A stretch of DNA of 41,408 nt from a virus. Its lineage: Duplodnaviria; Caudoviricetes. The stretch covers positions 1 through 41,408 of IMG/VR virus record IMGVR_UViG_3300032212_000049, one strand, 5' to 3'. Positions 452-41,408 of the stretch are shown piece after piece. The first letter of the stretch is position 1. Each line of letters opens with the position of its first letter. A program made the position numbers and the translations under genes. The notes under the pieces were generated by a model, which saw nothing but the letters and a program-made list of their open reading frames with translations, did not search any database and was not told where the DNA came from.

Positions 452-670
452 ATGAAGACATCAGAAATCAAAACCGGGAAAACCTACGTAAATAAGGGCG
501 CAGGAAAAACGCGCAGAACAGTTATTGAAATAGGCAATGAGCACAGGCCGGAGACGTTTAACAGCATTAACGATGCGCCTAATGAGCCTGGGGTGCTATA
601 TGAGCAGAGCGGTAAGCATCGAACACTTTATTTGAGCAGTTTTGCGCAATGGTGCGGGAAAGAGTCATAA
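452..670 (+). CDS. Hypothetical protein (first ORF ending in an attC-like site)
   Basis: ATG 452 after GGGGTG. The stop TAA is part of TCATAAC. Confidence 0.75.
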   Translation: MKTSEIKTGKTYVNKGAGKTRRTVIEIGNEHRPETFNSINDAPNEPGVLYEQSGKHRTLYLSSFAQWCGKES

Positions 671-713
671 CCACCGCAATATACGGCTTGTCCCGTGGAA
701 TGCTTTGTTATGT
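665..713 (+). repeat. attC-like site 1 (49 bp)
   Basis: tcataac ... acgg/ccgt stem ... gttatgt; short and degenerate. Confidence 0.65.
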
Positions 714-748
714 GGGTAATTTATTTTACACAGAGGATAAGAAATATT

Positions 749-886
749 ATGAAAACGTATTATTGGTTGATGATTAGAAAAAATGGCTCTCATGTCGAGG
801 GTAAATTTAGTTTGGTTCGTAGAGTTTTTGGGCGTGTGTTTTTAGGCGAAACCTACCAGGTTATAGGAGATTGGAAAAATGTATAG
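749..886 (+). CDS. Hypothetical cassette protein (45 aa)
   Basis: GAGGA SD then ATG 749. The ORF-track start at 695 lies inside the attC. Confidence 0.6.
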   Translation: MKTYYWLMIRKNGSHVEGKFSLVRRVFGRVFLGETYQVIGDWKNV

Positions 887-1040
887 TTGCTATAGATTGG
901 TTTTAGTTGCTGAAGATGGCGAGTACGTTATTTCAGAATGGCAAACAGAAGAAAGAGCGTTCAAAGAATTTGACAGAATTAAAGGAAATTACGGCGAAGG
1001 GCAAAGGTTAACTATTCGCCAGGTTGCGAGGACGTTTTAA
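879..1040 (+). CDS. Hypothetical cassette protein (53 aa)
   Basis: Manual translation MYSCYRLVLVAEDGEYVISEWQTEERAFKEFDRIKGNYGEGQRLTIRQVARTF*, with AGGAG SD upstream. Confidence 0.65.
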   Translation: MYSCYRLVLVAEDGEYVISEWQTEERAFKEFDRIKGNYGEGQRLTIRQVARTF

Positions 1041-1041
1041 C

Positions 1042-1104
1042 ACATAACCGCTGCAATATGCGGCGTGAGGGACGAACGTCCTTTGCATGATTGCTTTGTT
1101 ATGT
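1042..1104 (+). repeat. attC-like site 2 (63 bp)
   Basis: acataac / gttatgt outer boxes. Inner gcaatatgc pairs with gcatgattgc leaving one extra G; ggacg/cgtcc terminal stem. Confidence 0.85.
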
Positions 1105-1125
1105 TGGGTATTGGAGGTATTAAAA

Positions 1126-1344
1126 ATGGTAGACGAAATTGAATTTATGCACATGGAAGAAGACAGAAATAGAGATCACAACACACCAGTCATAATCAAG
1201 TTTTTTGAGTTGTCTGGGAAGTGGTCTATTTGTCACCAAAAGAGCGGTCAAAACGCATTTAGAAAAGAAGTAAATATGTTTGATACAAAACAAGATGCGA
1301 TTGAATTTGCAGAAGATAACGATTGTGTCGTTTTCGACACATAA
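1126..1344 (+). CDS. Hypothetical cassette protein
   Basis: GGAGGT SD, ATG 1126; stop within acaTAAc. Confidence 0.75.
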   Translation: MVDEIEFMHMEEDRNRDHNTPVIIKFFELSGKWSICHQKSGQNAFRKEVNMFDTKQDAIEFAEDNDCVVFDT

Positions 1345-1401
1345 CCTTTCTATTTTGCGGCTCGCGTTCCTTTGCGAGTCCGAAAGAATGGGTTGTTATA
1401 C
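1339..1401 (+). repeat. attC-like site 3 (63 bp)
   Basis: acataac ... cggctcgc/gcgagtccg stem ... gttatac; near-identical core to site 7. Confidence 0.8.
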
Positions 1402-1419
1402 GATTTATTTGGAGGATTT

Positions 1420-1638
1420 ATGGGAACAGATATCCATGTTTTTGCTGATAATGTAAGACTAAGAGAAGAAAACGAAAAGCTAAGAAAAGGAATAAAGGCT
1501 GTGCGTGACCTGATCGATGAAAGTTACGGCATAGAAGGTTTACATCAAAGCGGTGAGGTTTGTCCTTGGCATGACTTAGAGCAAGGTGGCACATTTGAGG
1601 AATGGCTTTTAGAGTTTAACGAAGCTGAATGCGTATAA
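1420..1638 (+). CDS. Hypothetical cassette protein (short coiled-coil segment)
   Basis: GGAGG SD, ATG 1420; stop within gtaTAAc. Confidence 0.75.
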   Translation: MGTDIHVFADNVRLREENEKLRKGIKAVRDLIDESYGIEGLHQSGEVCPWHDLEQGGTFEEWLLEFNEAECV

Positions 1639-1691
1639 CCCCAAGCTTTGCGGCTGGCGATAGACAGTCCGATTAATGCGCCTTGTTAGGC
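1633..1691 (+). repeat. attC-like site 4 (59 bp)
   Basis: gtataac ... cggctg/cagtccg ... gttaggc (canonical GTTRRRY). Confidence 0.8.
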
Positions 1692-1704
1692 GATAGGATT
1701 GAAC

Positions 1705-2028
1705 ATGCAACAGAAATATAGGCGATGGATAGATGAGCACTACAGCACTGTTAAAAGCTGTAAAAATAGATGTAATGAAGCTGTTAGAGCTATGATTGCA
1801 AAGTTTCCAGAGCTGCGGGTTCGAGTGGGTATAGCCAATGGTGTAATGCACTGCTGGACGATAGACGAAGATCATAGAATTGTTGACCCAACAGCTAAGC
1901 AATTTGAATGCTTCACTGGTAAACGATACGCACGACAATCAACTATTAGATACACAGTTATTGCAGATAGATTTTTGCAAAAACACGAATATGAACCGGC
2001 AACTGGCGCTATATTTTTGGACGCCTAA
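1705..2028 (+). CDS. Putative transglutaminase/papain-fold Cys-His-Asp enzyme (cassette)
   Basis: RC...HCW...IVDPTAKQF motif order; stop within gccTAAc. Alternative TTG start at 1699. Confidence 0.55.
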   Translation: MQQKYRRWIDEHYSTVKSCKNRCNEAVRAMIAKFPELRVRVGIANGVMHCWTIDEDHRIVDPTAKQFECFTGKRYARQSTIRYTVIADRFLQKHEYEPATGAIFLDA

Positions 2029-2076
2029 CCACAAGCTAAAGGGCGCGATAGCGTCCGTTTGAGCGCCTTGTTATGT
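2023..2076 (+). repeat. attC-like site 5 (54 bp)
   Basis: gcctaac; gctaaa pairs with tttgagc (extra G); gggcgc/gcgtcc stem; gttatgt. Confidence 0.85.
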
Positions 2077-2097
2077 GATTATTTTGAGGAATTTAAA

Positions 2098-2442
2098 TTG
2101 AAAGAGTTAGAAGGAAAATATGTTTATCTTAGGCCAACCGCAAATCACGCAAGGAAAGGTAAAAAGGTTAAAAAGGCTTTGATAATAAAAGTTGCTAAGG
2201 TTTTTGTGACCCTTACAATTGAGGGTCTGAATTTGGCGCAAAAGTATCGTTTTGACGGTAATAGATTAAGCAATGAGCATAATGCTGGATATGTTGTCTA
2301 TGCAAACCAACAAGATCTTGATGAATATTATGAAGCAAACGAGCTAGCAGATAGGATTAACAGAAAATACCGCTACCAGCGCGATTTTGCGCAAGTAGAA
2401 ATAAACAAGCTTAGGCAAGTAGCTGAGATATTAGACATATAA
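2098..2442 (+). CDS. Hypothetical cassette protein (basic N-terminus)
   Basis: GAGGA SD then TTG 2098; ORF track 2059..2442. Confidence 0.75.
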   Translation: MKELEGKYVYLRPTANHARKGKKVKKALIIKVAKVFVTLTIEGLNLAQKYRFDGNRLSNEHNAGYVVYANQQDLDEYYEANELADRINRKYRYQRDFAQVEINKLRQVAEILDI

Positions 2443-2493
2443 TCTTGCGATAAACGGCAAATTTACGAGTCAGATTTAATAGCATTGTTATAC
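2437..2493 (+). repeat. attC-like site 6, degenerate (57 bp)
   Basis: Left box reads atataat instead of the expected acataac; right box gttatac intact. Confidence 0.55.
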
Positions 2494-2517
2494 GTAAATT
2501 TGATAGGTGATTATATT

Positions 2518-2688
2518 ATGACGACATTGTTAAAAATTCTATTTTTTATAGCTGTATGGATTGCGGTTACCGCATTGTTTATGGGGCCGATGAACTCAGA
2601 CGCATCACTTTTATTTGATGTGTTATGTGCAGCAGGATGGGCGCTTTTGACTCAGATTTTTGAAAAAACAAGGTTTGTAAGCGTATAA
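2518..2688 (+). CDS. Small two-TM membrane protein (cassette, 56 aa)
   Basis: AGGTGA SD; two hydrophobic segments; stop within gtaTAAc. Confidence 0.7.
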   Translation: MTTLLKILFFIAVWIAVTALFMGPMNSDASLLFDVLCAAGWALLTQIFEKTRFVSV

Positions 2689-2755
2689 CCTTTCTATTTT
2701 GCGGCTCGCGTTCCTTTACGAGTCCGAGCGTAGCGGCAAGAATGCTTTGTTATAC
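2683..2755 (+). repeat. attC-like site 7 (73 bp)
   Basis: gtataac cctttctattttgcggctcgcgttcctttacgagtccg ... gttatac; shares about 40 nt with site 3. Confidence 0.8.
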
Positions 2756-2769
2756 CGGAGGATTGGAAA

Positions 2770-3057
2770 TTGAACAGACTTGAACACCTACTAACTATTT
2801 TTAGTGAAGAATGCTCAGAGATACAGCAGGCCGTTTCAAAAGCGAAGCGGTTTGGTTTGGATGATGGTTATCCTGGAACTGAAAGAACTAATCTATCTGA
2901 TATAAGGATAGAGCTAAATCAACTCATAGCTATGGCTGAAATGTTAGAAGCAGAGGGGCTAGATCTGTCGCCTGATCATAGAGTTAGAGCCGAAAAGAAG
3001 GTTAAGGTTGAGCATTATTTAGAGTACTCGAAAGAAAGAGGCACTTTAAGCGTATAA
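2770..3057 (+). CDS. MazG-like nucleotide pyrophosphohydrolase family protein (cassette)
   Basis: EECSEIQQAVSKAKRFG...IELNQL resembles the phage MazG-like EExxE...ExxD pattern, with the last D replaced by Q. Confidence 0.6.
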   Translation: MNRLEHLLTIFSEECSEIQQAVSKAKRFGLDDGYPGTERTNLSDIRIELNQLIAMAEMLEAEGLDLSPDHRVRAEKKVKVEHYLEYSKERGTLSV

Positions 3058-3169
3058 CCTTTCTATTTTGCGGCAAACAAAGGACAAACCAGCTATGAAA
3101 GATGAATTACCAGAAATTACAGAAAACCGGACAGAAGAAGGTTTGTCCGACAAGAATAAGTTGTTAGAT
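3052..3169 (+). repeat. attC-like site 8 with a long loop (118 bp)
   Basis: gtataac ctttctattttgcggcaaac ... gtttgtccgacaagaataag ttgttagat. The loop contains an SD and ATG. Confidence 0.7.
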
Positions 3170-3382
3170 GCGATTCACACAGGGAAAGTGCTTGTTACTT
3201 GGAACGGTAACGAGTGCGGTAAATTGTGGGAACGTCTTTGGAAATGGACTGAAGCTGAAGGCTATCAAAGTAAGACTTGCGCAAGTGGCTTATTTGATAA
3301 CTGGTATACCTATAAAAACAGCGATGAATTTGTTTTACGCCTAAAGCAAGAGATTACTGAATTTAATTTTTGTGGCATCTAA
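3095..3382 (+). CDS. Hypothetical protein starting inside attC-like site 8
   Basis: AAAGGA SD, ATG 3095; reads through the GTTAGAT box; stop within atcTAAc (3377-3383). Confidence 0.65.
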   Translation: MKDELPEITENRTEEGLSDKNKLLDAIHTGKVLVTWNGNECGKLWERLWKWTEAEGYQSKTCASGLFDNWYTYKNSDEFVLRLKQEITEFNFCGI

Positions 3383-3459
3383 CACACGATTCAACGAAGC
3401 AATGTCGCTGTATTTTAGATATGGCGACTACAAATTAGATTTGAGAAGGGCAAGCGGAA

Positions 3460-3684
3460 ATGAGCGACTTATATTTAAGTGATGAAGAGGTTAAGACGAT
3501 CACCGGGAAAGTTCGGTCTTCATGGCAAAAAAAAGCGCTGGAAGAAATGGGCTACACTGTGAAAGTCAGGCCAGATGGATCGTTTTGGGTTCCTCGTGGT
3601 CAGTTTCTTGACGCCAAAAAAGTAGAACCAGAGAAAAAATACACTTTAAATTTGGAAGCATTAAGCGATGGTCAGGCAGCGTAA
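3460..3684 (+). CDS. Excisionase-like protein (DUF4224-type)
   Basis: LSDEEVKTITG...Q...L..MG...RPDGS motif; overlaps the integrase start. Confidence 0.8.
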   Translation: MSDLYLSDEEVKTITGKVRSSWQKKALEEMGYTVKVRPDGSFWVPRGQFLDAKKVEPEKKYTLNLEALSDGQAA

Positions 3685-4780
3685 CTCAGAAAACAATCCT
3701 TATCCTAAAAACTGGCGTATTCGGAAGCGCGGTAATAATGGCGATTATGTCATTTCTTATCGTGCCCCCAAATCCGCTAGACACCTATGGGGCGGTAAAG
3801 CAGAGCCCGAACTTGGCCGTGGAAAAACAAAAGGCGAAGCAGAAAAGAAAGCATTTGCTGAATGGAGTAAGAGAATATCCATCGATACTACGCCGATGAC
3901 CATGGCAGACTTGTTTGATAAATATAGCGCTGAAGTTATCCCAAATAAAGCACACAAAACGCAACTATCAAATAACGCAAGCATTAAGCGATTAAGAGCT
4001 GTTCACGGAGATATGCCAGTTTTAGTTTACGAAACATACATGGCTTATCAGTATAAAGAGCAATGCGCTAAAGATTACAGCAAAAAAATAGCAAATCTTG
4101 ACCTTCAAGTATTATCGCATTGCTTCACCAAAGCGTTTGAATGGGGCGTCCCGATTACTGAGCATCCGATAAAACAAAAGGTGACAAAATTTACAATACC
4201 ACCCAGAGACCGTTATGTAGAAGACTGGGAATTAGAAGCATTTCTATCAATCTGTAATCCAATGTTAAAGGTCTATGTGCCATTAAAGTATGCGACTGGC
4301 AAAGACAAATCTATGATTCTACGAATTAAAATGTCAGATATTACAGAAACCGGTCTAAGTTTCCCAAAGCGCGGCAAAATAAAAACTAGCGCCAATGCAA
4401 AGGCATCGTTTATGCCGTTTTACGATAAGCAAGGAGATTCTACTGGACTAAAAGAGATAATTGATGGCGTTATAGCTTGGCGTAAAAAACATTTAAAAAT
4501 CAGTTCTATTTGGCTTATCTGCACGTCCGTAGGTCAGCCTTATATAAAAGAAACAGGCGCAACAAGTGGTTTTGACTCAATTTGGAAGCGCGCTATGACA
4601 AAAGCGCTTGATAACACCAGGTTAGAATTGCGCTTTACTGAGCATGATTTGTGCTCTAAGTCTGCCAGTGATGTCGAAACAGTAGAGCAGGCAGCAAAGC
4701 TAAGAGGTCACACAAATACGAAAACAACACAGCAGAACTACAGGGTGAAACCTGAAATAGTTATGCCGATAAAATGCTAA
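3668..4780 (+). CDS. int: Phage tyrosine recombinase/integrase with atypical catalytic motifs
   Basis: 370 aa between xis and attP; RDRYV, ATG(KD), HDL(C)SKSASD and GH...Y boxes. Confidence 0.88.
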   Translation: MVRQRNSENNPYPKNWRIRKRGNNGDYVISYRAPKSARHLWGGKAEPELGRGKTKGEAEKKAFAEWSKRISIDTTPMTMADLFDKYSAEVIPNKAHKTQLSNNASIKRLRAVHGDMPVLVYETYMAYQYKEQCAKDYSKKIANLDLQVLSHCFTKAFEWGVPITEHPIKQKVTKFTIPPRDRYVEDWELEAFLSICNPMLKVYVPLKYATGKDKSMILRIKMSDITETGLSFPKRGKIKTSANAKASFMPFYDKQGDSTGLKEIIDGVIAWRKKHLKISSIWLICTSVGQPYIKETGATSGFDSIWKRAMTKALDNTRLELRFTEHDLCSKSASDVETVEQAAKLRGHTNTKTTQQNYRVKPEIVMPIKC

Positions 4781-4783
4781 TCA

Positions 4784-5019
4784 ATGGGGCAATCTATGGT
4801 TTATGGGGCAATCCAAAAAACGCAATGGCTGGAAAGCCCCGTAAAATGGCGCGGCTGGCAGGATTCGAACCTGCGACCACCTGGTTCGAAGCCAGTAAGT
4901 TTATTTCACTTTTTATTTTGCAAATCAAGTGCTTACGACAATATATTGCCCCATTCAAAACGTATCGCGCAGGAAAATAAACCCTTATATATCATAGATA
5001 TAGCTAAATCAATGGGGCA
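4784..5019. promoter_or_regulatory. Integrase arm-type repeats and an IHF-consensus site around the attP core
   Basis: ATGGGGCA at 4784, 4803 and 5012, inverted at 4947. aatcaagtgctta (4923-4935) matches WATCAANNNNTTR. Confidence 0.7.
4847..4895 (-). other. attP core: 3' half of a tRNA-Arg(TCG) gene
   Basis: Reverse complement ctggcttcgaaccaggtggtcgcaggttcgaatcctgccagccgcgcca contains the anticodon arm, T-arm and CCA but no 5' half. Confidence 0.88.
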
Positions 5020-5060: not shown

Positions 5061-5714
5061 ATGCTAAGTGAATTAAGAATTAATCATAACTATCAAAAAA
5101 GTTTTGCCTTCACTGATGAATTGATTGTCAACAACTTTGCCGGTGGCGGTGCGAGTATTGGAATTGAGCTTGCCATGGGTCGCCCTGTTGATATTGCTAT
5201 AAACCATGACGAAAAAGCCATTGAAATGCACAGTAACAATCACCCACAAACGCATCATTATTGTGAAAGTGTTTGGGATGTAGATCCGCGTAAAGTCGTT
5301 GGAGACAGTTAGGTAAAACTTGCTTGGTTCTCGCCGGACTGTAAGCACTTCAGTAAAGCAAAAGGTGGCAAGCCTGTCGAAAAGAGCATTCGCGGTCTTG
5401 CCTGGGTAGCGATCAAATGGGCGGCAACCGTTAAACCAAAAGTGATTATGCTCGAGAACGTTGAGGAGTTTGCAACATGGGGCCCGCTGGTTGACGGTCA
5501 GCAATGCAAGAAGCGAAAAGGCAGAACCTTCAAATCATTTACCAATGCATTAAATCGTCTCGGCTACCAGGTTGAATACAGAACGCTTCGCGCTTGCGAC
5601 TATGGAGCTCCAACAATACGGAAAAGACTATTTATGGTTGCTCGGCGTGATAGCAAGTCAGTTGTTTGGTTCGCACCCGCACCCGCACCCGCACCCGCAC
5701 CCGCAAGAATATAG
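5061..5714 (+). pseudogene. C5 cytosine DNA methyltransferase pseudogene
   Basis: FAGGGAS, FSPDCKHFS, MLENV and YGAPTIRKR motifs in one frame, interrupted by TAG at 5310-5312 and truncated after a (GCACCC)n tract. Confidence 0.85.
5673..5705 (+). repeat. (GCACCC)5.5 hexamer microsatellite
   Basis: Five exact copies plus gca. Confidence 0.95.
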
Positions 5715-23527: not shown

Positions 23528-23872
23528 TCATTCCGCAGCTGTCTTGCGAAGATGACAACGATTACAAAGACTTTGCAAGTTTGCATTATCATCTGTGCCG
23601 CCCTTCGATTTAGGCTTAATGTGATCAACTTGAGTGGCTTCTATGAGGTGTCCAACTTTTATACAGATTTGACACAATGCCTTGTCTCTTTCTAATATTT
23701 GTTTGCGTAATTTATCCCACATATTGCCATAACCACGCTGATGCCTGTTACCACGTTTTGATTGCCATTTGCTCCAGCTTATATTTGATTGCTGGTGATC
23801 ATCACAATATCCAGTCTTATTGCGATGCAATGTTTTACATTGTCGGCAAGGTCGCTTTGGACTTTTAGGCAT
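23528..23872 (-). CDS. HNH endonuclease (terminase-associated, HK97 gp74-like)
   Basis: RD..LCQIC...VDHIKP..GG.D..NLQSLCNRCH. Confidence 0.92.
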   Translation of the reverse strand: MPKSPKRPCRQCKTLHRNKTGYCDDHQQSNISWSKWQSKRGNRHQRGYGNMWDKLRKQILERDKALCQICIKVGHLIEATQVDHIKPKSKGGTDDNANLQSLCNRCHLRKTAAE

Positions 23873-26651
23873 TAATTACATTTACAGATAATGAACTGTT
23901 TTGCATATCTTCATGCCATAACACAATTCCTTCAGGATCTGCCGTGCTATATCCTATTAGTGTTGTATTTGTAATACCCTGAACCGTAATAAGCGCCCCG
24001 ATATCAAATACTATTTCACCGTTACCATTATCCCAATCAAATGCATTAGAATACGTATTGCTATCAATAGGAGTGGCGCTTAACCCGATTAACTCAAACC
24101 GAATAAATGCTGTTAAATCGATAGGAATCCCTTTATGCGCAATTGCTATGCTAAACCTGTTTCCTCGCCCTTGATAAATAACAATATTTTGTCTATTAGT
24201 TGACAGCTCTGCTGGCATATATTGAATTTGATCGATAGGATTAGAAGTAGCAACAACAACATATATAGTTCTAACTGCCTGAATCGCAACATTTCCAGCC
24301 GCATCGGTAACATCATACGTAGCTGTGTAAGTGCCAATAATATTTGAATCAATATTGTTTACGACAACTACATCTGCTGTTATATCACCGTCATTATTGT
24401 CTACTGCGCTATATCCCGGCTCAGTCCACGTATCACCTTGAACGATTGTCTGATTGCCACCAACCAGCGATATTATCGGCGCAACTGTGTCAGCAAGTGT
24501 TGTTGACGTAAACGACCCAATTACACCGCCAATATCGAGCGTAGTTGTGGTGCCGGTTAAATAGGTTGCGGCGGTTAAATGCCTAACGCGAATCTGATAA
24601 TTAAGTCGAACATTTGTAGCCGTTGTCGTCCATACGCCCCACGTTGCGCCGTTGTCCGTTGACACAGAGTACTCGCCACCGCTTACCGAAACAGGGATGT
24701 CCAAACCTGCATCAACGCCCTGAACGGTAATCGTGTTTGATGTCACATAGACGGATCGGGGAACGCCTGTTTGCGCGGCAAGGGAAAAGGAGCTTGGTGT
24801 TGCATCAACTGCCGCGTCCGTTGTGAATGACGTGCTTGTAACAGTTCCATCAGAGCCATTGAGCATAGGCCTGATATCAAGGTTATAAAGTGTTGCTGCG
24901 GTTAAACCGTTGATTGTCAGAGGGGATGTTGCCACTAGCCAGCCTGCGCCAATATTATACTCGTAGCTTGTTACGTCAACGCCGGAATAGCTAAACTCGA
25001 CAATCGCACTTGTTTTTGAAGTCGTAACGACATCAATACTAACAAGATTAGCGGGCGCTGGGCCGTAAAGCGTATGATCTGCATAGTCACCCCAAATGCC
25101 GTCCGTTTCGTCCTGATACCATACGCGATATATCGCGCCTGCATCTGATTGTATTGCTCCATTTGCGAGATCGCTTGTCCCTGTTCCCGTCTCAAAATAA
25201 CCATAGGCATTGTCAGTCGCATCAAGACCGGGAGCGCTTATTGCGTCATTAATACCGGTTAACGCGACTGTTTCAACATAATCATGCCCAATATTAGGCG
25301 ATATTTGGAATGTGATTGCGTCCTGAGTTCCTGCATCATCGACAGTAATAACGATATCAGTATTATATCTGGTTGTTTTTGTACCGAATATTTTCGGATC
25401 AGGTACCGTAATCGTAATCGTGTTTACGTCTTGCGCGGTTACAATTAAAGCGCCTGCCTGAATCGATGCGGTTTTGCCGGTCGCATTCGCATTGCTTACA
25501 TTAAGCGTAATTGAGTCACCAGCGTAATATGGGCCAGCACTAATACTATCGATTATAAATGCTGGCGCGGCTGTTGTTGCACTAACAAGCGCCGGGCTAA
25601 CTTGAATATTTGGCGTGGCTTCGTCATCTTCTGCAACAACATAATAATCATACGAAGTAGATGCTGATGCACCGTTAAATGTCATTGACGCCTGTACACT
25701 TGCTGTTGCAGCTACATTTTGTGCCTCAAACGCCGGTGAACCAGTAGAATCCTGTCCAGCTTTGACCTGTGCCGAGCTTGGTGCTGCCGATCCGCTTGCT
25801 AAGCGTACCGCATAAATCGTTCCGTCCTCATCAAGCGTTGTTGAAATATCGTGCCCAACCTGAGTAGGATTACTCGCTATAGGCGCAACTGTAAAAACAG
25901 GAGCTATTGTGTCGGGCGGTGCTACCCAATTTGCGTCATTATTAGCAATAAGCGCGGTATAACTATCGCTGATTTCTTGAGCTGTAAGCGCTGCATCGTG
26001 TAACTCTGCAAAATATAATGAGCCGCGCGCATTTCGGTTTTGTGTTGGGCGGTTAAACAGTGAAACATATCGGCCAGTGTCATTGACTGCTGTTAACGAA
26101 TCGTTTTGAGTAATTGTATTTACTGACTGGCCTTGAAGCGCATTATTGTAATAAATTTTGATTCGATCTGCCGCCACCGCTTGCGCTGTATCAATAATAA
26201 TATGGATTACACTCAATCCAGATGGATAATTGTTTGCTCGTACATAGCCGCCGCCAGCTTCATTATTCCAGCGAACCTGGAATTTTGCCGCCATTTGAAC
26301 ATTTAAATCGCCGTTTCCAGAGTATGTTCCCAGATGAAAAACATGATCTTCATTCGGAGCCGTGTTATCTAAATCGGCGACTAAAATGATACTTGCCTGC
26401 GTTGCATTGTTTAGTGCCGAACCGATGTTTCCGTTTGCAACAATGTCCGCTAATTCTGCAATCATTGAACCTGACGTTTTGCCTGCTGCATTTGCGGTTA
26501 GGCCATTGCCTGCCGCGACAGACGTCCAGCTACCATCTGAATTCGCATTATCAATCGTCAGGTTATTGCCGTTACCAGTGTCGTCAACAATAACCCCAGA
26601 CATAACGCCAGATGACGCATTGTCAATTAACCATCGTGCTATTGCGGCCAT
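23865..26651 (-). CDS. Large multi-domain beta-rich protein (LamG-like, Fn3/Ig-like, DUF5011-like)
   Basis: DTVAPIISLVG...EPGYSAVDNNDGDIT...GTY..TYDVTDAAGN Ig-like repeat; Thr/Ala/Ser-rich. Confidence 0.7.
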   Translation of the reverse strand: MAAIARWLIDNASSGVMSGVIVDDTGNGNNLTIDNANSDGSWTSVAAGNGLTANAAGKTSGSMIAELADIVANGNIGSALNNATQASIILVADLDNTAPNEDHVFHLGTYSGNGDLNVQMAAKFQVRWNNEAGGGYVRANNYPSGLSVIHIIIDTAQAVAADRIKIYYNNALQGQSVNTITQNDSLTAVNDTGRYVSLFNRPTQNRNARGSLYFAELHDAALTAQEISDSYTALIANNDANWVAPPDTIAPVFTVAPIASNPTQVGHDISTTLDEDGTIYAVRLASGSAAPSSAQVKAGQDSTGSPAFEAQNVAATASVQASMTFNGASASTSYDYYVVAEDDEATPNIQVSPALVSATTAAPAFIIDSISAGPYYAGDSITLNVSNANATGKTASIQAGALIVTAQDVNTITITVPDPKIFGTKTTRYNTDIVITVDDAGTQDAITFQISPNIGHDYVETVALTGINDAISAPGLDATDNAYGYFETGTGTSDLANGAIQSDAGAIYRVWYQDETDGIWGDYADHTLYGPAPANLVSIDVVTTSKTSAIVEFSYSGVDVTSYEYNIGAGWLVATSPLTINGLTAATLYNLDIRPMLNGSDGTVTSTSFTTDAAVDATPSSFSLAAQTGVPRSVYVTSNTITVQGVDAGLDIPVSVSGGEYSVSTDNGATWGVWTTTATNVRLNYQIRVRHLTAATYLTGTTTTLDIGGVIGSFTSTTLADTVAPIISLVGGNQTIVQGDTWTEPGYSAVDNNDGDITADVVVVNNIDSNIIGTYTATYDVTDAAGNVAIQAVRTIYVVVATSNPIDQIQYMPAELSTNRQNIVIYQGRGNRFSIAIAHKGIPIDLTAFIRFELIGLSATPIDSNTYSNAFDWDNGNGEIVFDIGALITVQGITNTTLIGYSTADPEGIVLWHEDMQNSSLSVNVINA

Positions 26652-27877
26652 TAGCCACCTCCAATGCCGGGATAACCAGCACTTGTCAGTGGAATACGAA
26701 TTTCTCTAAACCTTACCGCTTCATCTTGATGCTTGATTGCAATGTAAATCGCATCCTGCCCGGTAATATCTATTGCATTTGTTCGATACTCAACGCCGTT
26801 ATATCCATCTAAATTTTGTGGATCAATATTCTGCCCTGCTGGAGCATTAAAACCGTAAGTCCATCCGCCATTTCCATAAAATGAGTCAAATGCATATTTG
26901 ACGTCAAACGTTTTATCATTTTCAGGCTTTAATCGTCGCCAGCTAACAATGACCTCTCCAGTAATATTGGATCTAACTCCGGTTAGCGAATAAATATGGT
27001 TGATGTCTTCGTCTGCCGTTTCTTCGTAGATTTCGAACCCGTCAAGTAAAAATGTTCCAGGATATAATGAAAGCCCTTCTTTATTCGTAACATAAAAATA
27101 TGTTGCCAAGTCAAAATAATCGTAACCCGTTTCAAGTGTTGTTTCGTCTTGTATTCCCTGCTCCTGCGCCCCACTTTCACCGCGCTGGTGATCTGGATGC
27201 GGATCGATAATGATCTGCTGCCAATTACCCGTATACTCTAAATTTGCATAATGGTAAAAATGCCAATTATCAGATTCATTGTTTGTACGTGTCGTTGATG
27301 TATTTCTTAAATATATTCCTGTGTGCCAGTTTGCACTACCTATCGGTGATTTTTTAACAATTGTCGGCGGGACTTTTACCCAGTAACGCATCCTGTTATA
27401 TGTTTTTAATGTCGTGTAGTTAACGTGTTCACGAAGATAATTCCAGTCGTTTGATACAGCGCCTTTGTTGTTATAGAAATTGATGAACATGCTGCCTGCT
27501 GCGCCACCGCTAGTTACATCATCCTGTAAACTTTGGCTTCCAAATAACGACTCTGTTGTATTAAGCGATAGCGTTCCCTCCCGCAAGTTCCCGGCGCTGT
27601 CGTCGTCATCATGCTCCCACAAATAGCGTAATGTGCCCCCGCCTTCGGTAAACACAGCAGGAATAGATCCGTATTCGAACGAATCCAAAATTAACGAATT
27701 TGCAAATTGCGATGGCGGACTATATTCGCCCCCTGGCGCACAAGCTGTATGCAGTTTCCCGTCAGCACATAATGTAAGCTCGCTGTTTTCCCAAGTCTTA
27801 CTAACGCCCGATACTTCAGCAAACGCAGAAATCGCAAATAAAAACGCGAATAATCCTGCCATAAATCTACTTTTCAT
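26651..27877 (-). CDS. Secreted beta-rich protein with a Sec signal peptide
   Basis: MKSRFMAGLFAFLFAISAFA-EV; aromatic-rich; function unknown. Confidence 0.7.
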   Translation of the reverse strand: MKSRFMAGLFAFLFAISAFAEVSGVSKTWENSELTLCADGKLHTACAPGGEYSPPSQFANSLILDSFEYGSIPAVFTEGGGTLRYLWEHDDDDSAGNLREGTLSLNTTESLFGSQSLQDDVTSGGAAGSMFINFYNNKGAVSNDWNYLREHVNYTTLKTYNRMRYWVKVPPTIVKKSPIGSANWHTGIYLRNTSTTRTNNESDNWHFYHYANLEYTGNWQQIIIDPHPDHQRGESGAQEQGIQDETTLETGYDYFDLATYFYVTNKEGLSLYPGTFLLDGFEIYEETADEDINHIYSLTGVRSNITGEVIVSWRRLKPENDKTFDVKYAFDSFYGNGGWTYGFNAPAGQNIDPQNLDGYNGVEYRTNAIDITGQDAIYIAIKHQDEAVRFREIRIPLTSAGYPGIGGG

Positions 27878-40725: not shown

Positions 40726-41408
40726 ATGAAAACAATAGAAATATTACTAACTAAAGAACAGAAAGAGCAAATTAACAATCATTCCATGACCCTCGAAGAG
40801 TTTCTTGCAAAGGTCGGTGGAAGCAAATCATCTTTAAAAGAATTGTCTTGCAATGAAGCCCTAAAAGCTGTCGAAAGAAACGGCTATGCTCTGCGATACG
40901 TCAATAATCAAACAGAAGCCATATGTCTAAAAGCTGTCGAAAATGACGGCAATGCTCTGCGATACGTCAATAATCAAACAGAAGCCATATGTCTAAAAGC
41001 TGTCGAAAGAAACGGCAATGCTCTGCGATACGTCAATAATCAAACAGAAGCCATATGTCTAAAAGCTGTCGAAAATGACGGCAATGCTCTGCGATACGTC
41101 AATAATCAAACAGAAGCCATATGTCTAAAAGCTGTCGAAAGAAACGGCTATGCTCTGCAATACGTCAATAATCAAACAGAAGCCATATGTCTAAAAGCTG
41201 TCGAAAATGACGGCAATGCTCTGCGATACGTCAATAATCAAACAGAAGCCATATGTCTAAAAGCTGTCGAAAGAAACGGCTATGCTCTGCGATACGTCAA
41301 TAATCAAACAGAAGCCATATGTCTAAAAGCTGTCGAAAGAAACGGCTATGCTCTGCAATACGTCAATAATCAAACAGAAGCCATATGTCTAAAAGCTGTC
41401 GAAAATGA
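40726..41408 (+). CDS. 22-aa repeat protein (DUF4116-like), N-terminal part; continues at position 3
   Basis: MKTIEILLTKEQKEQ...NEALKAVERNGYALRYVNNQTEAIC... open to the window end. Confidence 0.85.
   Translation, partial: MKTIEILLTKEQKEQINNHSMTLEEFLAKVGGSKSSLKELSCNEALKAVERNGYALRYVNNQTEAICLKAVENDGNALRYVNNQTEAICLKAVERNGNALRYVNNQTEAICLKAVENDGNALRYVNNQTEAICLKAVERNGYALQYVNNQTEAICLKAVENDGNALRYVNNQTEAICLKAVERNGYALRYVNNQTEAICLKAVERNGYALQYVNNQTEAICLKAVEN
40861..41408 (+). repeat. 66-bp coding tandem repeat, 8 full copies plus a partial
   Basis: Units differ only at three positions (AGAAAC/AATGAC, TAT/AAT, CGA/CAA). Confidence 0.97.

Follow-up and report, generated by a model that had tools for sequence, protein, structure and literature searches.

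The phage genome held in IMG/VR record IMGVR_UViG_3300032212_000049 (Duplodnaviria; Caudoviricetes) carries, at positions 665–3382, an array of eight gene units and eight hairpins (J0–J7) that works like an integron cassette array. The window analysed here is the entire viral record, 41,408 nt with direct terminal repeats, and represents a lambdoid temperate phage. All eight hairpins have the anatomy of integron attC sites on the minus strand and all of the genes lie on the plus strand, an arrangement that we call reversed polarity. Since two or more attC sites stand within 3 kb and no intI gene is present, the array is a cluster of attC sites lacking integron integrases (CALIN); it is neither a canonical cassette array nor a complete integron. 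In a canonical cassette the open reading frame (ORF) lies on the attC top strand and ends at R''; here the ORFs are on the plus strand and the sites on the minus strand. We favour the explanation, with a probability of about 0.7, that the units were once circles and were probably inserted by a host integron integrase (IntI) at AA|C within the box that contains each stop codon. Recombination of the eight sites is predicted from sequence.

The attC sites of bacterial integrons contain R and L boxes, spacers of 5–6 nt and, at position 4 of L'', an extra base that is usually a G when read on the bottom strand; the bottom strand, which is the more stable and is purine-rich, has a second extra base, T, 6 bp further (Nivina et al. 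2016, PMC5027507). In each hairpin of the array the elements were read in this order: a box, a 5-nt spacer, an 8-nt L'' whose fourth base is extra, the loop, a 7-nt L', a spacer and a second box. With the minus strand taken as attC top strand, the spacer starts with AA in 8/8 sites, the extra base is C in six and T in two, and 5, 7, 6, 3, 6, 5, 7 and 6 of the 7 L positions pair from J0 to J7. With the plus strand as top, only 2–5 of 7 L positions pair and the extra base is never C. The spacers measure 5 and 5–7 nt, and the sites span 49–118 nt. At the position of the second extra base, a top-strand A is found at +7 in 4/8 sites, at +8 in 3/8, and at neither in J6. J2 and J6 have 43 nt in common at 98% identity. 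Our home-made attC scanner, which gave 113 hits against 4 in resampled sequence, recovers six of the eight sites, all on the minus strand, and finds nothing else in the 41 kb at the same threshold. J5, with its altered crossover triplet, is predicted to be inactive.

The outer boxes, RYYYAAC and GTTRRRY, are complementary in the circular form of a unit, and AAC is kept in seven of the eight, J5 having AAT. A sequence-only reading of this DNA had reported seven units in which the opening box is the reverse complement of the unit's own closing box; all seven pairs are found where it placed them, with perfectly complementary runs of 8, 7, 8, 8, 8, 7 and 9 nt. An eighth unit (2070–2443), which that reading had left out, has a degenerate 3' box (ending in AAT, 6/8 complementary) and was kept in the tests. 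In an exact permutation of the eight 5' boxes over the eight 3' boxes, scored on the four variable bases after the common GTTA, pairing within units reaches 29/32, a value attained by 36 of the 40,320 assignments (p = 0.0009), so that chance does not account for it; two other scoring schemes gave the same p. The boxes do mismatch within single hairpins, as had been remarked, where pairing is 19/32 (p = 0.45). For the inner arms the result is the opposite: duplex energy favours partners in the same hairpin (196/40,320; p = 0.005) and does not favour partners in the same unit (1,426/5,040; p = 0.28). The arms stay together and the boxes go with the gene body, which places the exchange point at an outer box. 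Circularisation in silico raises R-box pairing from 5–7 to 6–7 of 7 positions (7/7 in six of the eight units), and the folding energy is lower or equal in all eight. The same pattern extends to other viral arrays, in which, once five duplicate loci and the window had been set aside, 3/3 box positions match by unit for 31 of 47 neighbouring-site pairs and by hairpin for 7 of 47.

Part of the proposal that these units passed through circular cassette intermediates therefore stands: unit-wise pairing indicates integron-type cassettes with a circular stage. The orientation that the proposal implied does not, because the attC anatomy lies on the minus strand. Box pairing is symmetric on the two strands and thus shows a circular stage and not which box is cut; circularisation likewise cannot separate the two crossover sides. 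Nor can box pairing carry the weight once given to it as the strongest evidence for site-specific insertion: it would survive any exchange taking place within the hairpins. It is the arm test, rather than box pairing alone, that puts the crossover at a box.

IntI acts on the folded bottom strand, which it cleaves between A and C; recombination of wild-type top strands is 1,000–10,000 times lower (PMC5027507). From this strand choice, together with the minus-strand anatomy, the crossover is assigned to AA|C at the stop codon of each gene, and the hairpin would belong to the gene behind it. A crossover at the plus-strand G|TT had been suggested; because the attC features sit on the minus strand, we move the cut to the stop-codon box. 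Cassette borders would accordingly run from 671–1047 to 3058–3382 with the hairpin first in each (Table 1). A cassette would then consist of a hairpin, a translation start and a gene ending at TAA, with the coding strand as the recombining (bottom) strand. Host IntI would be supplied in trans, a plausible occasion being the SOS response, in which prophages are induced as well, and the cassette genes would be read from the phage early promoter on the way to xis-int. Entry would occur at the half-site J8 (3377–3395), a candidate attI-like or secondary site; similar ends are seen at eight other viral junctions, which were chosen by eye and carry no statistic.

Table 1. Sites, putative cassettes and neighbouring features of the array (cassette borders as deduced from the AA|C crossover)
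Feature	Positions	Strand	Remarks
Putative resident phage gene before array	452–670	+	closes with box; no opening box or hairpin
J0, attC-type site, 49 nt	665–713	-	before C1, distal array end; extra C in L'', 5/7 L pairs
Cassette C1	671–1047	+	J0 and two ORFs (749–886, 879–1040)
J1, attC-type site, 63 nt	1042–1104	-	before C2; extra C, 7/7 L pairs, spacers 5 and 6, fold z -3.15
Cassette C2	1048–1344	+	ORF 1126–1344
J2, attC-type site, 63 nt	1339–1401	-	before C3; fold z -2.94
Cassette C3	1345–1638	+	ORF 1420–1638; common phage domain, usually within longer phage proteins
J3, degenerate, possibly hybrid, 59 nt	1633–1691	-	before C4; T at extra position, 3/7 L pairs; missed by scanner
Cassette C4	1639–2028	+	ORF 1705–2028; phage family (YunG-like lead)
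J4, attC-type site, 54 nt	2023–2076	-	before C5; widespread family, bacterial integrons included
Cassette C5	2029–2442	+	ORF 2098–2442; phage ProQ-C-like domain (PF24203, phrog_3032)
J5, degenerate, 57 nt	2437–2493	-	before C6; crossover triplet AAT; fold z +0.8
Cassette C6	2443–2688	+	ORF 2518–2688; small hydrophobic protein, matches no family
J6, attC-type site, 73 nt	2683–2755	-	before C7; extra C, 7/7 L pairs
Cassette C7	2689–3057	+	ORF 2770–3057; phage nucleoside triphosphate pyrophosphohydrolase (phrog_4856)
J7, attC-type site, 118 nt	3052–3169	-	before C8; loop holds ribosome-binding site and ATG (3095) of C8 gene
Cassette C8	3058–3382	+	ORF 3095–3382; homologues conserved only from box onward
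J8, half-site without hairpin	3377–3395	-	L-like box, 5-nt spacer, GTT box
Excisionase	3460–3684	+	phrog_1266, DUF4224
Tyrosine integrase, prophage type, not IntI	3668–4780	+	
3' part of tRNA gene, likely attP core	4858–4911	-	

That the hairpin travels with the gene behind it is likely, rather than proven, in this phage. At the start of the array a full hairpin precedes the first boxed unit, and the gene in front of it has no opening box in the 2.1 kb upstream; at the other end the last unit is closed by its partner box with no hairpin behind. Pairs of collected viral loci (given here by L-numbers) in which hairpin and gene might have moved together were drawn from an all-against-all BLAST comparison. 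L016 and L025 have a 297-nt block in common (99.7%) that starts a few bases inside a hairpin and runs into the gene behind, the DNA in front being unrelated. L004 and L024 have only box-to-box DNA in common (70%), which does not decide the side. In L180 the C4 homologue is preceded by a hairpin and ends, at its stop codon, in a partner box that no hairpin follows. Translation starts point the same way: of 40 long viral sites, 18 contain an ATG from which a frame continues past the box (a count with no chance control, some of the 40 being false calls). The C8 ORF of the window runs from its ATG through the right arm and box of J7, and the C3 homologues P0131–P0133 lack any other Met and carry a leader resembling a hairpin arm. 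In the long sites L006, L008, L010, L027, L176 and L186, start codons in the attC loops give many phage proteins a common, arm-encoded N-terminal leader ending like PVEPVVM or GRVDPLV, by which arrays of this kind can be recognised at the protein level.

Most viral loci have reversed polarity and few bacterial loci do. A 21-letter pattern modelled on the window sites, with gene direction left free, returned 37 viral loci, to which another search added three; in 21 of 64 parts of a bacterial search the same pattern returned at least 131 loci. Among the 34 non-duplicate viral loci, 30 could be scored, giving 24 reversed, 3 canonical and 3 tied, against 6 reversed, 79 canonical and 2 tied for the 87 scored of the 131 bacterial loci collected. 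By site, the viral set has 54 reversed-only, 6 canonical-only, 19 with both and 14 with neither, and the bacterial set 14, 171, 19 and 81, respectively. The difference in polarity between viral and bacterial sets has a Fisher p of 8e-16, which is overstated because the loci are not independent and many are from Colwellia. In L191, a reversed array precedes an excisionase-like gene and an integrase, the layout seen in the window.

Phage CALINs have been described previously by Qi, Rajabal, Ghaly, Tetu and Gillings (2023, PMC9892861), who reported 17 in 10,705 genomes and found that IntI1 recombined five of six tested phage sites with attI1. On rechecking, their phage TJE1 has canonical polarity. 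Phage PH101 (L196 1498–2963; KR534323 about 75,900–77,400) has three sites on the plus strand and the annotated genes between them on the minus strand, and is thus reversed. Two PH101 sites were recombined by IntI1, with the bottom strand above the top (PMC9892861), so that bench support for the strand choice of reversed phage sites is available from one phage. The text of that paper calls TJE1 and PH101 typical and does not use the words 'antisense', 'opposite' or 'reverse', although its figures may show arrows. In Vibrio phages H188 and jenny 12G5, for which PMC9892861 lists two sites each, our scanner detected none that was convincing. The window array resembles the published phage CALINs in being an attC cluster in a phage without intI, and differs from them in having eight sites, against 2–4 in their Table S1, and in that all of its genes are antisense to the attC top strand. 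The reversed layout of phage cassettes is apparently not in print; our literature search found no description of it, with subscription papers and bioRxiv supplements mostly outside its reach. The present analysis adds the dissociation of box and arm pairing, the reversed reading of PH101, and the distinction between native and cassette forms of the cargo.

Comparison with bacterial integron cassettes (PMC5027507) shows the same R and L boxes, extra L'' base, spacers, unit-wise box complementarity and small promoterless ORF. J4 is ~80% like bacterial attC sites, and attC families are common to both settings. The window differs in having the gene on the bottom strand, the site before the gene, no intI, phage-type cargo and, in some units, a start codon in the loop. 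The inversion described in PMC5027507, insertion by the top strand, flips gene and site together and would not yield this layout. IntI also inserts at GWT outside integrons, in secondary sites termed attG (bioRxiv 10.1101/2022.09.11.507474). The outer box of the array fits GWT; unlike attG sites, the window has eight cassettes stacked at one place and a candidate entry half-site with an attI-like L box and a 5-nt spacer.

The most economical source of the enzyme would be the host, through an IntI provided in trans. The phage genome matched no IntI model (TIGR02249), and its integrase matched no NCBIfam model; the IntI model was also absent from all five related viral records, which are mostly fragments. 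IntI is encoded by four of five bacterial genomes that have J4-like sites. One homologue of the phage integrase is named from a gammaproteobacterium. The SOS response induces both IntI and prophages (PMC9892861).

Several observations weigh against the insertion of reversed units by a host IntI. The host IntI is putative. Two sites (49 and 54 nt) fall below the 57–141 nt quoted in PMC5027507; a 50-nt TJE1 site was active (PMC9892861). The plus strand folds better in only 5/8 circular forms, and GC skew is near zero (+0.09 to -0.13). The single DNA run that contains the stretch, and may be its source, gave no excised or rearranged form and contigs without joints, which does not show absence; no RNA run was listed as containing it. 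Other difficulties concern the side to which a hairpin belongs, and these favour an ordinary layout of gene and then hairpin, cut at the plus-strand G|TT. The front hairpin of L172 is nearer to J4, behind C4 (35/40), than to J3, in front of it (32/45), an objection weakened by the wide spread of the J4 family and the decay of J3. A 28-nt block that spans the inferred crossover, with 11 nt in front of it, occurs in both J6 and J7, and the C4 homologue in L177 is followed but not preceded by a hairpin. The count of end asymmetry among 75 viral sites is weak: 18 against the 10 that pair only with the gene in front (p = 0.18). For 115 bacterial sites it is 8 against 29, and the viral and bacterial counts differ (Fisher p = 0.0008), a comparison confounded by gene length and locus ends. 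A Mantel test of arm similarity against the bases beyond the box was uninformative, with weak correlation on both sides in 106 viral and 235 bacterial sites and no asymmetry even in the bacterial control. We consider the ordinary layout improbable. Under it, either the recombinase would have to recognise the extra bases on the opposite strand or IntI would have to recombine top strands, against the large strand preference cited above; in addition, a hairpin must have been lost at 3380 and a box before 452. The L016/L025 block and L180 place the gene behind the hairpin, and the PH101 sites favour the bottom strand.

A phage-encoded enzyme, either the integrase of this phage or an IntI-like enzyme of a co-infecting phage, could act on the same anatomy; the integrase gene is 290 nt away from the array, its product falls in an unusual clade in which the two customary catalytic arginines are replaced, and in L191, too, an array stands before an integrase. 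This is unlikely, given that the integrase is accompanied by an excisionase and a tRNA attP core, that the IntI searches of this genome and related records were empty, and that reversed arrays adjoin an ordinary integrase (L191) or terminase genes (L172, L189) and occur in the virulent phage PH101. Former IntI cassettes or circles might instead be fixed by now, or reshuffled mainly by phage Sak4/SSB recombination between similar hairpins, with the hairpins kept as translation-start modules. The hybrid look of J3, the lost AAC triplet of J5, the presence of sak4 and ssb in the same operon, the start codons in loops and the many cargo homologues without hairpins would all fit such a history. It is nevertheless quite unlikely, as loop exchanges would scramble the arms, which pair within hairpins, and six sites keep the full anatomy. 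Finally, the hairpins lie between co-transcribed early genes and could be RNA elements only (terminators, RNase sites or antisense targets). This is highly improbable and, as a sole explanation, largely refuted by the box and arm tests: RNA function cannot select for the pairing of boxes 200–370 nt apart at the expense of pairing within hairpins, and IntI determinants, namely the extra C and the 5-nt spacer, are conserved. An intrinsic terminator scan of the plus strand found none at any junction, the one minus-strand match lying inside J1, and Rfam has no family for the hairpins. The earlier judgement that terminators or RNA-processing hairpins leave the unit-wise pairing unexplained is thus borne out.

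One unit recurs in another context, contrary to the outcome that would have spoken against the original proposal, namely homologous ORFs always in one order and setting. C4 is found in phage locus L172 at 82% nucleotide identity over 450 nt with other genes on both sides, and 13 further C4 relatives occur in metagenomes (the window's own record excluded), some with hairpins and others with none; the Atlas clusters nearest to C4 are mostly viral. Directly behind a reversed hairpin in L172, next to the C4 homologue, is an Acb2/Tad1 anti-defence protein (771–995; PF24729, E 3e-18). The C3 domain is present in 36 viral loci, with a scanned hairpin nearby in one of them; 29 of the 36 were inspected, and the ORF, counted from its first start, has 115 aa or more in 25 of the 28 loci measured. 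Relatives of C8 agree only from the box onward, three ending at identical box-coded residues and one longer form having other ends. C5 and C7 match phage families. A comparison of the units with bacterial integron arrays had also been suggested; when the ten ORFs were run by tblastn against the 131 bacterial loci there was no match, a small sample that is no test of absence. PADLOC gave no match for the ten ORFs. The source of the cargo looks to be phage genes and not bacterial integrons.

A tentative and rather doubtful extension is that phages keep an integron cassette pool of their own, made from trimmed native phage genes, in mirror polarity and with a borrowed host IntI. The native and cassette forms of C3, C4 and C8 would then be substrate and product of cassette genesis, a process for which we know of no explanation. 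The cargo has longer, un-boxed native phage relatives and a polarity inverted relative to the mRNA, and any model of cassette genesis must account for both. If the proposal is correct, the opposed polarities would form a firewall between the two pools. Inserted into a phage array, a host cassette (in many cases an anti-phage one) would be antisense to the early transcript, and a phage cassette in a host integron would be antisense to Pc. Integrons are regarded as bacterial devices and have lately been viewed as stores of anti-phage genes (bioRxiv 10.1101/2024.07.02.601686), and a phage-side pool of opposite polarity would mean that one recombination chemistry serves both sides of the arms race. 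Cassette exchange could also account for some of the mosaicism seen in the early regions of phages. In practice, attC callers are liable to assign gene and site wrongly in phages.

The phage has HK97-type head genes, a long tail and a lambda-like repressor/replication block. Its early operon on the plus strand runs from ~37.5 kb through sak4, ssb and an exonuclease gene, across the record join, and on to xis and the integrase gene, which is followed by the 3' part of a tRNA gene; the array lies within the operon, directly upstream of xis-int. All ten ORFs between 452 and 3382 are on the plus strand. A nucleotide search with 600–3500 against 50,697 GenBank phages gave no match, and no relative with an empty site was found when viral loci were sought via the integrase and C5, neither of which gave any viral locus. 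Tyrosine recombinases usually carry HDLR and an arginine in the first catalytic motif. The integrase encoded at 3668–4780 has HDLC in the HDLR position and a first catalytic motif without arginine. HDLC is found in 33 of 102 homologues, indicating a conserved atypical clade rather than a single broken gene; a PDB search with the integrase gave no match.

Several other features of the genome were observed. A hairpin of 10 pairs (3404–3428) between the entry half-site and the excisionase start is a possible regulator of read-through into xis-int. Directly after attP, a cytosine methyltransferase gene (5115–5714) is interrupted by a stop codon and truncated in a 6-nt repeat. A gene with about eleven 66-nt tandem units (DUF4116) spans the record join (40726–41408 and 1–266), and its copy number may be an assembly artefact. 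Between the lysis and packaging genes (23865–27877) lie two large genes, one encoding 928 aa with an Ig-like domain and the other 408 aa that belong to no family.

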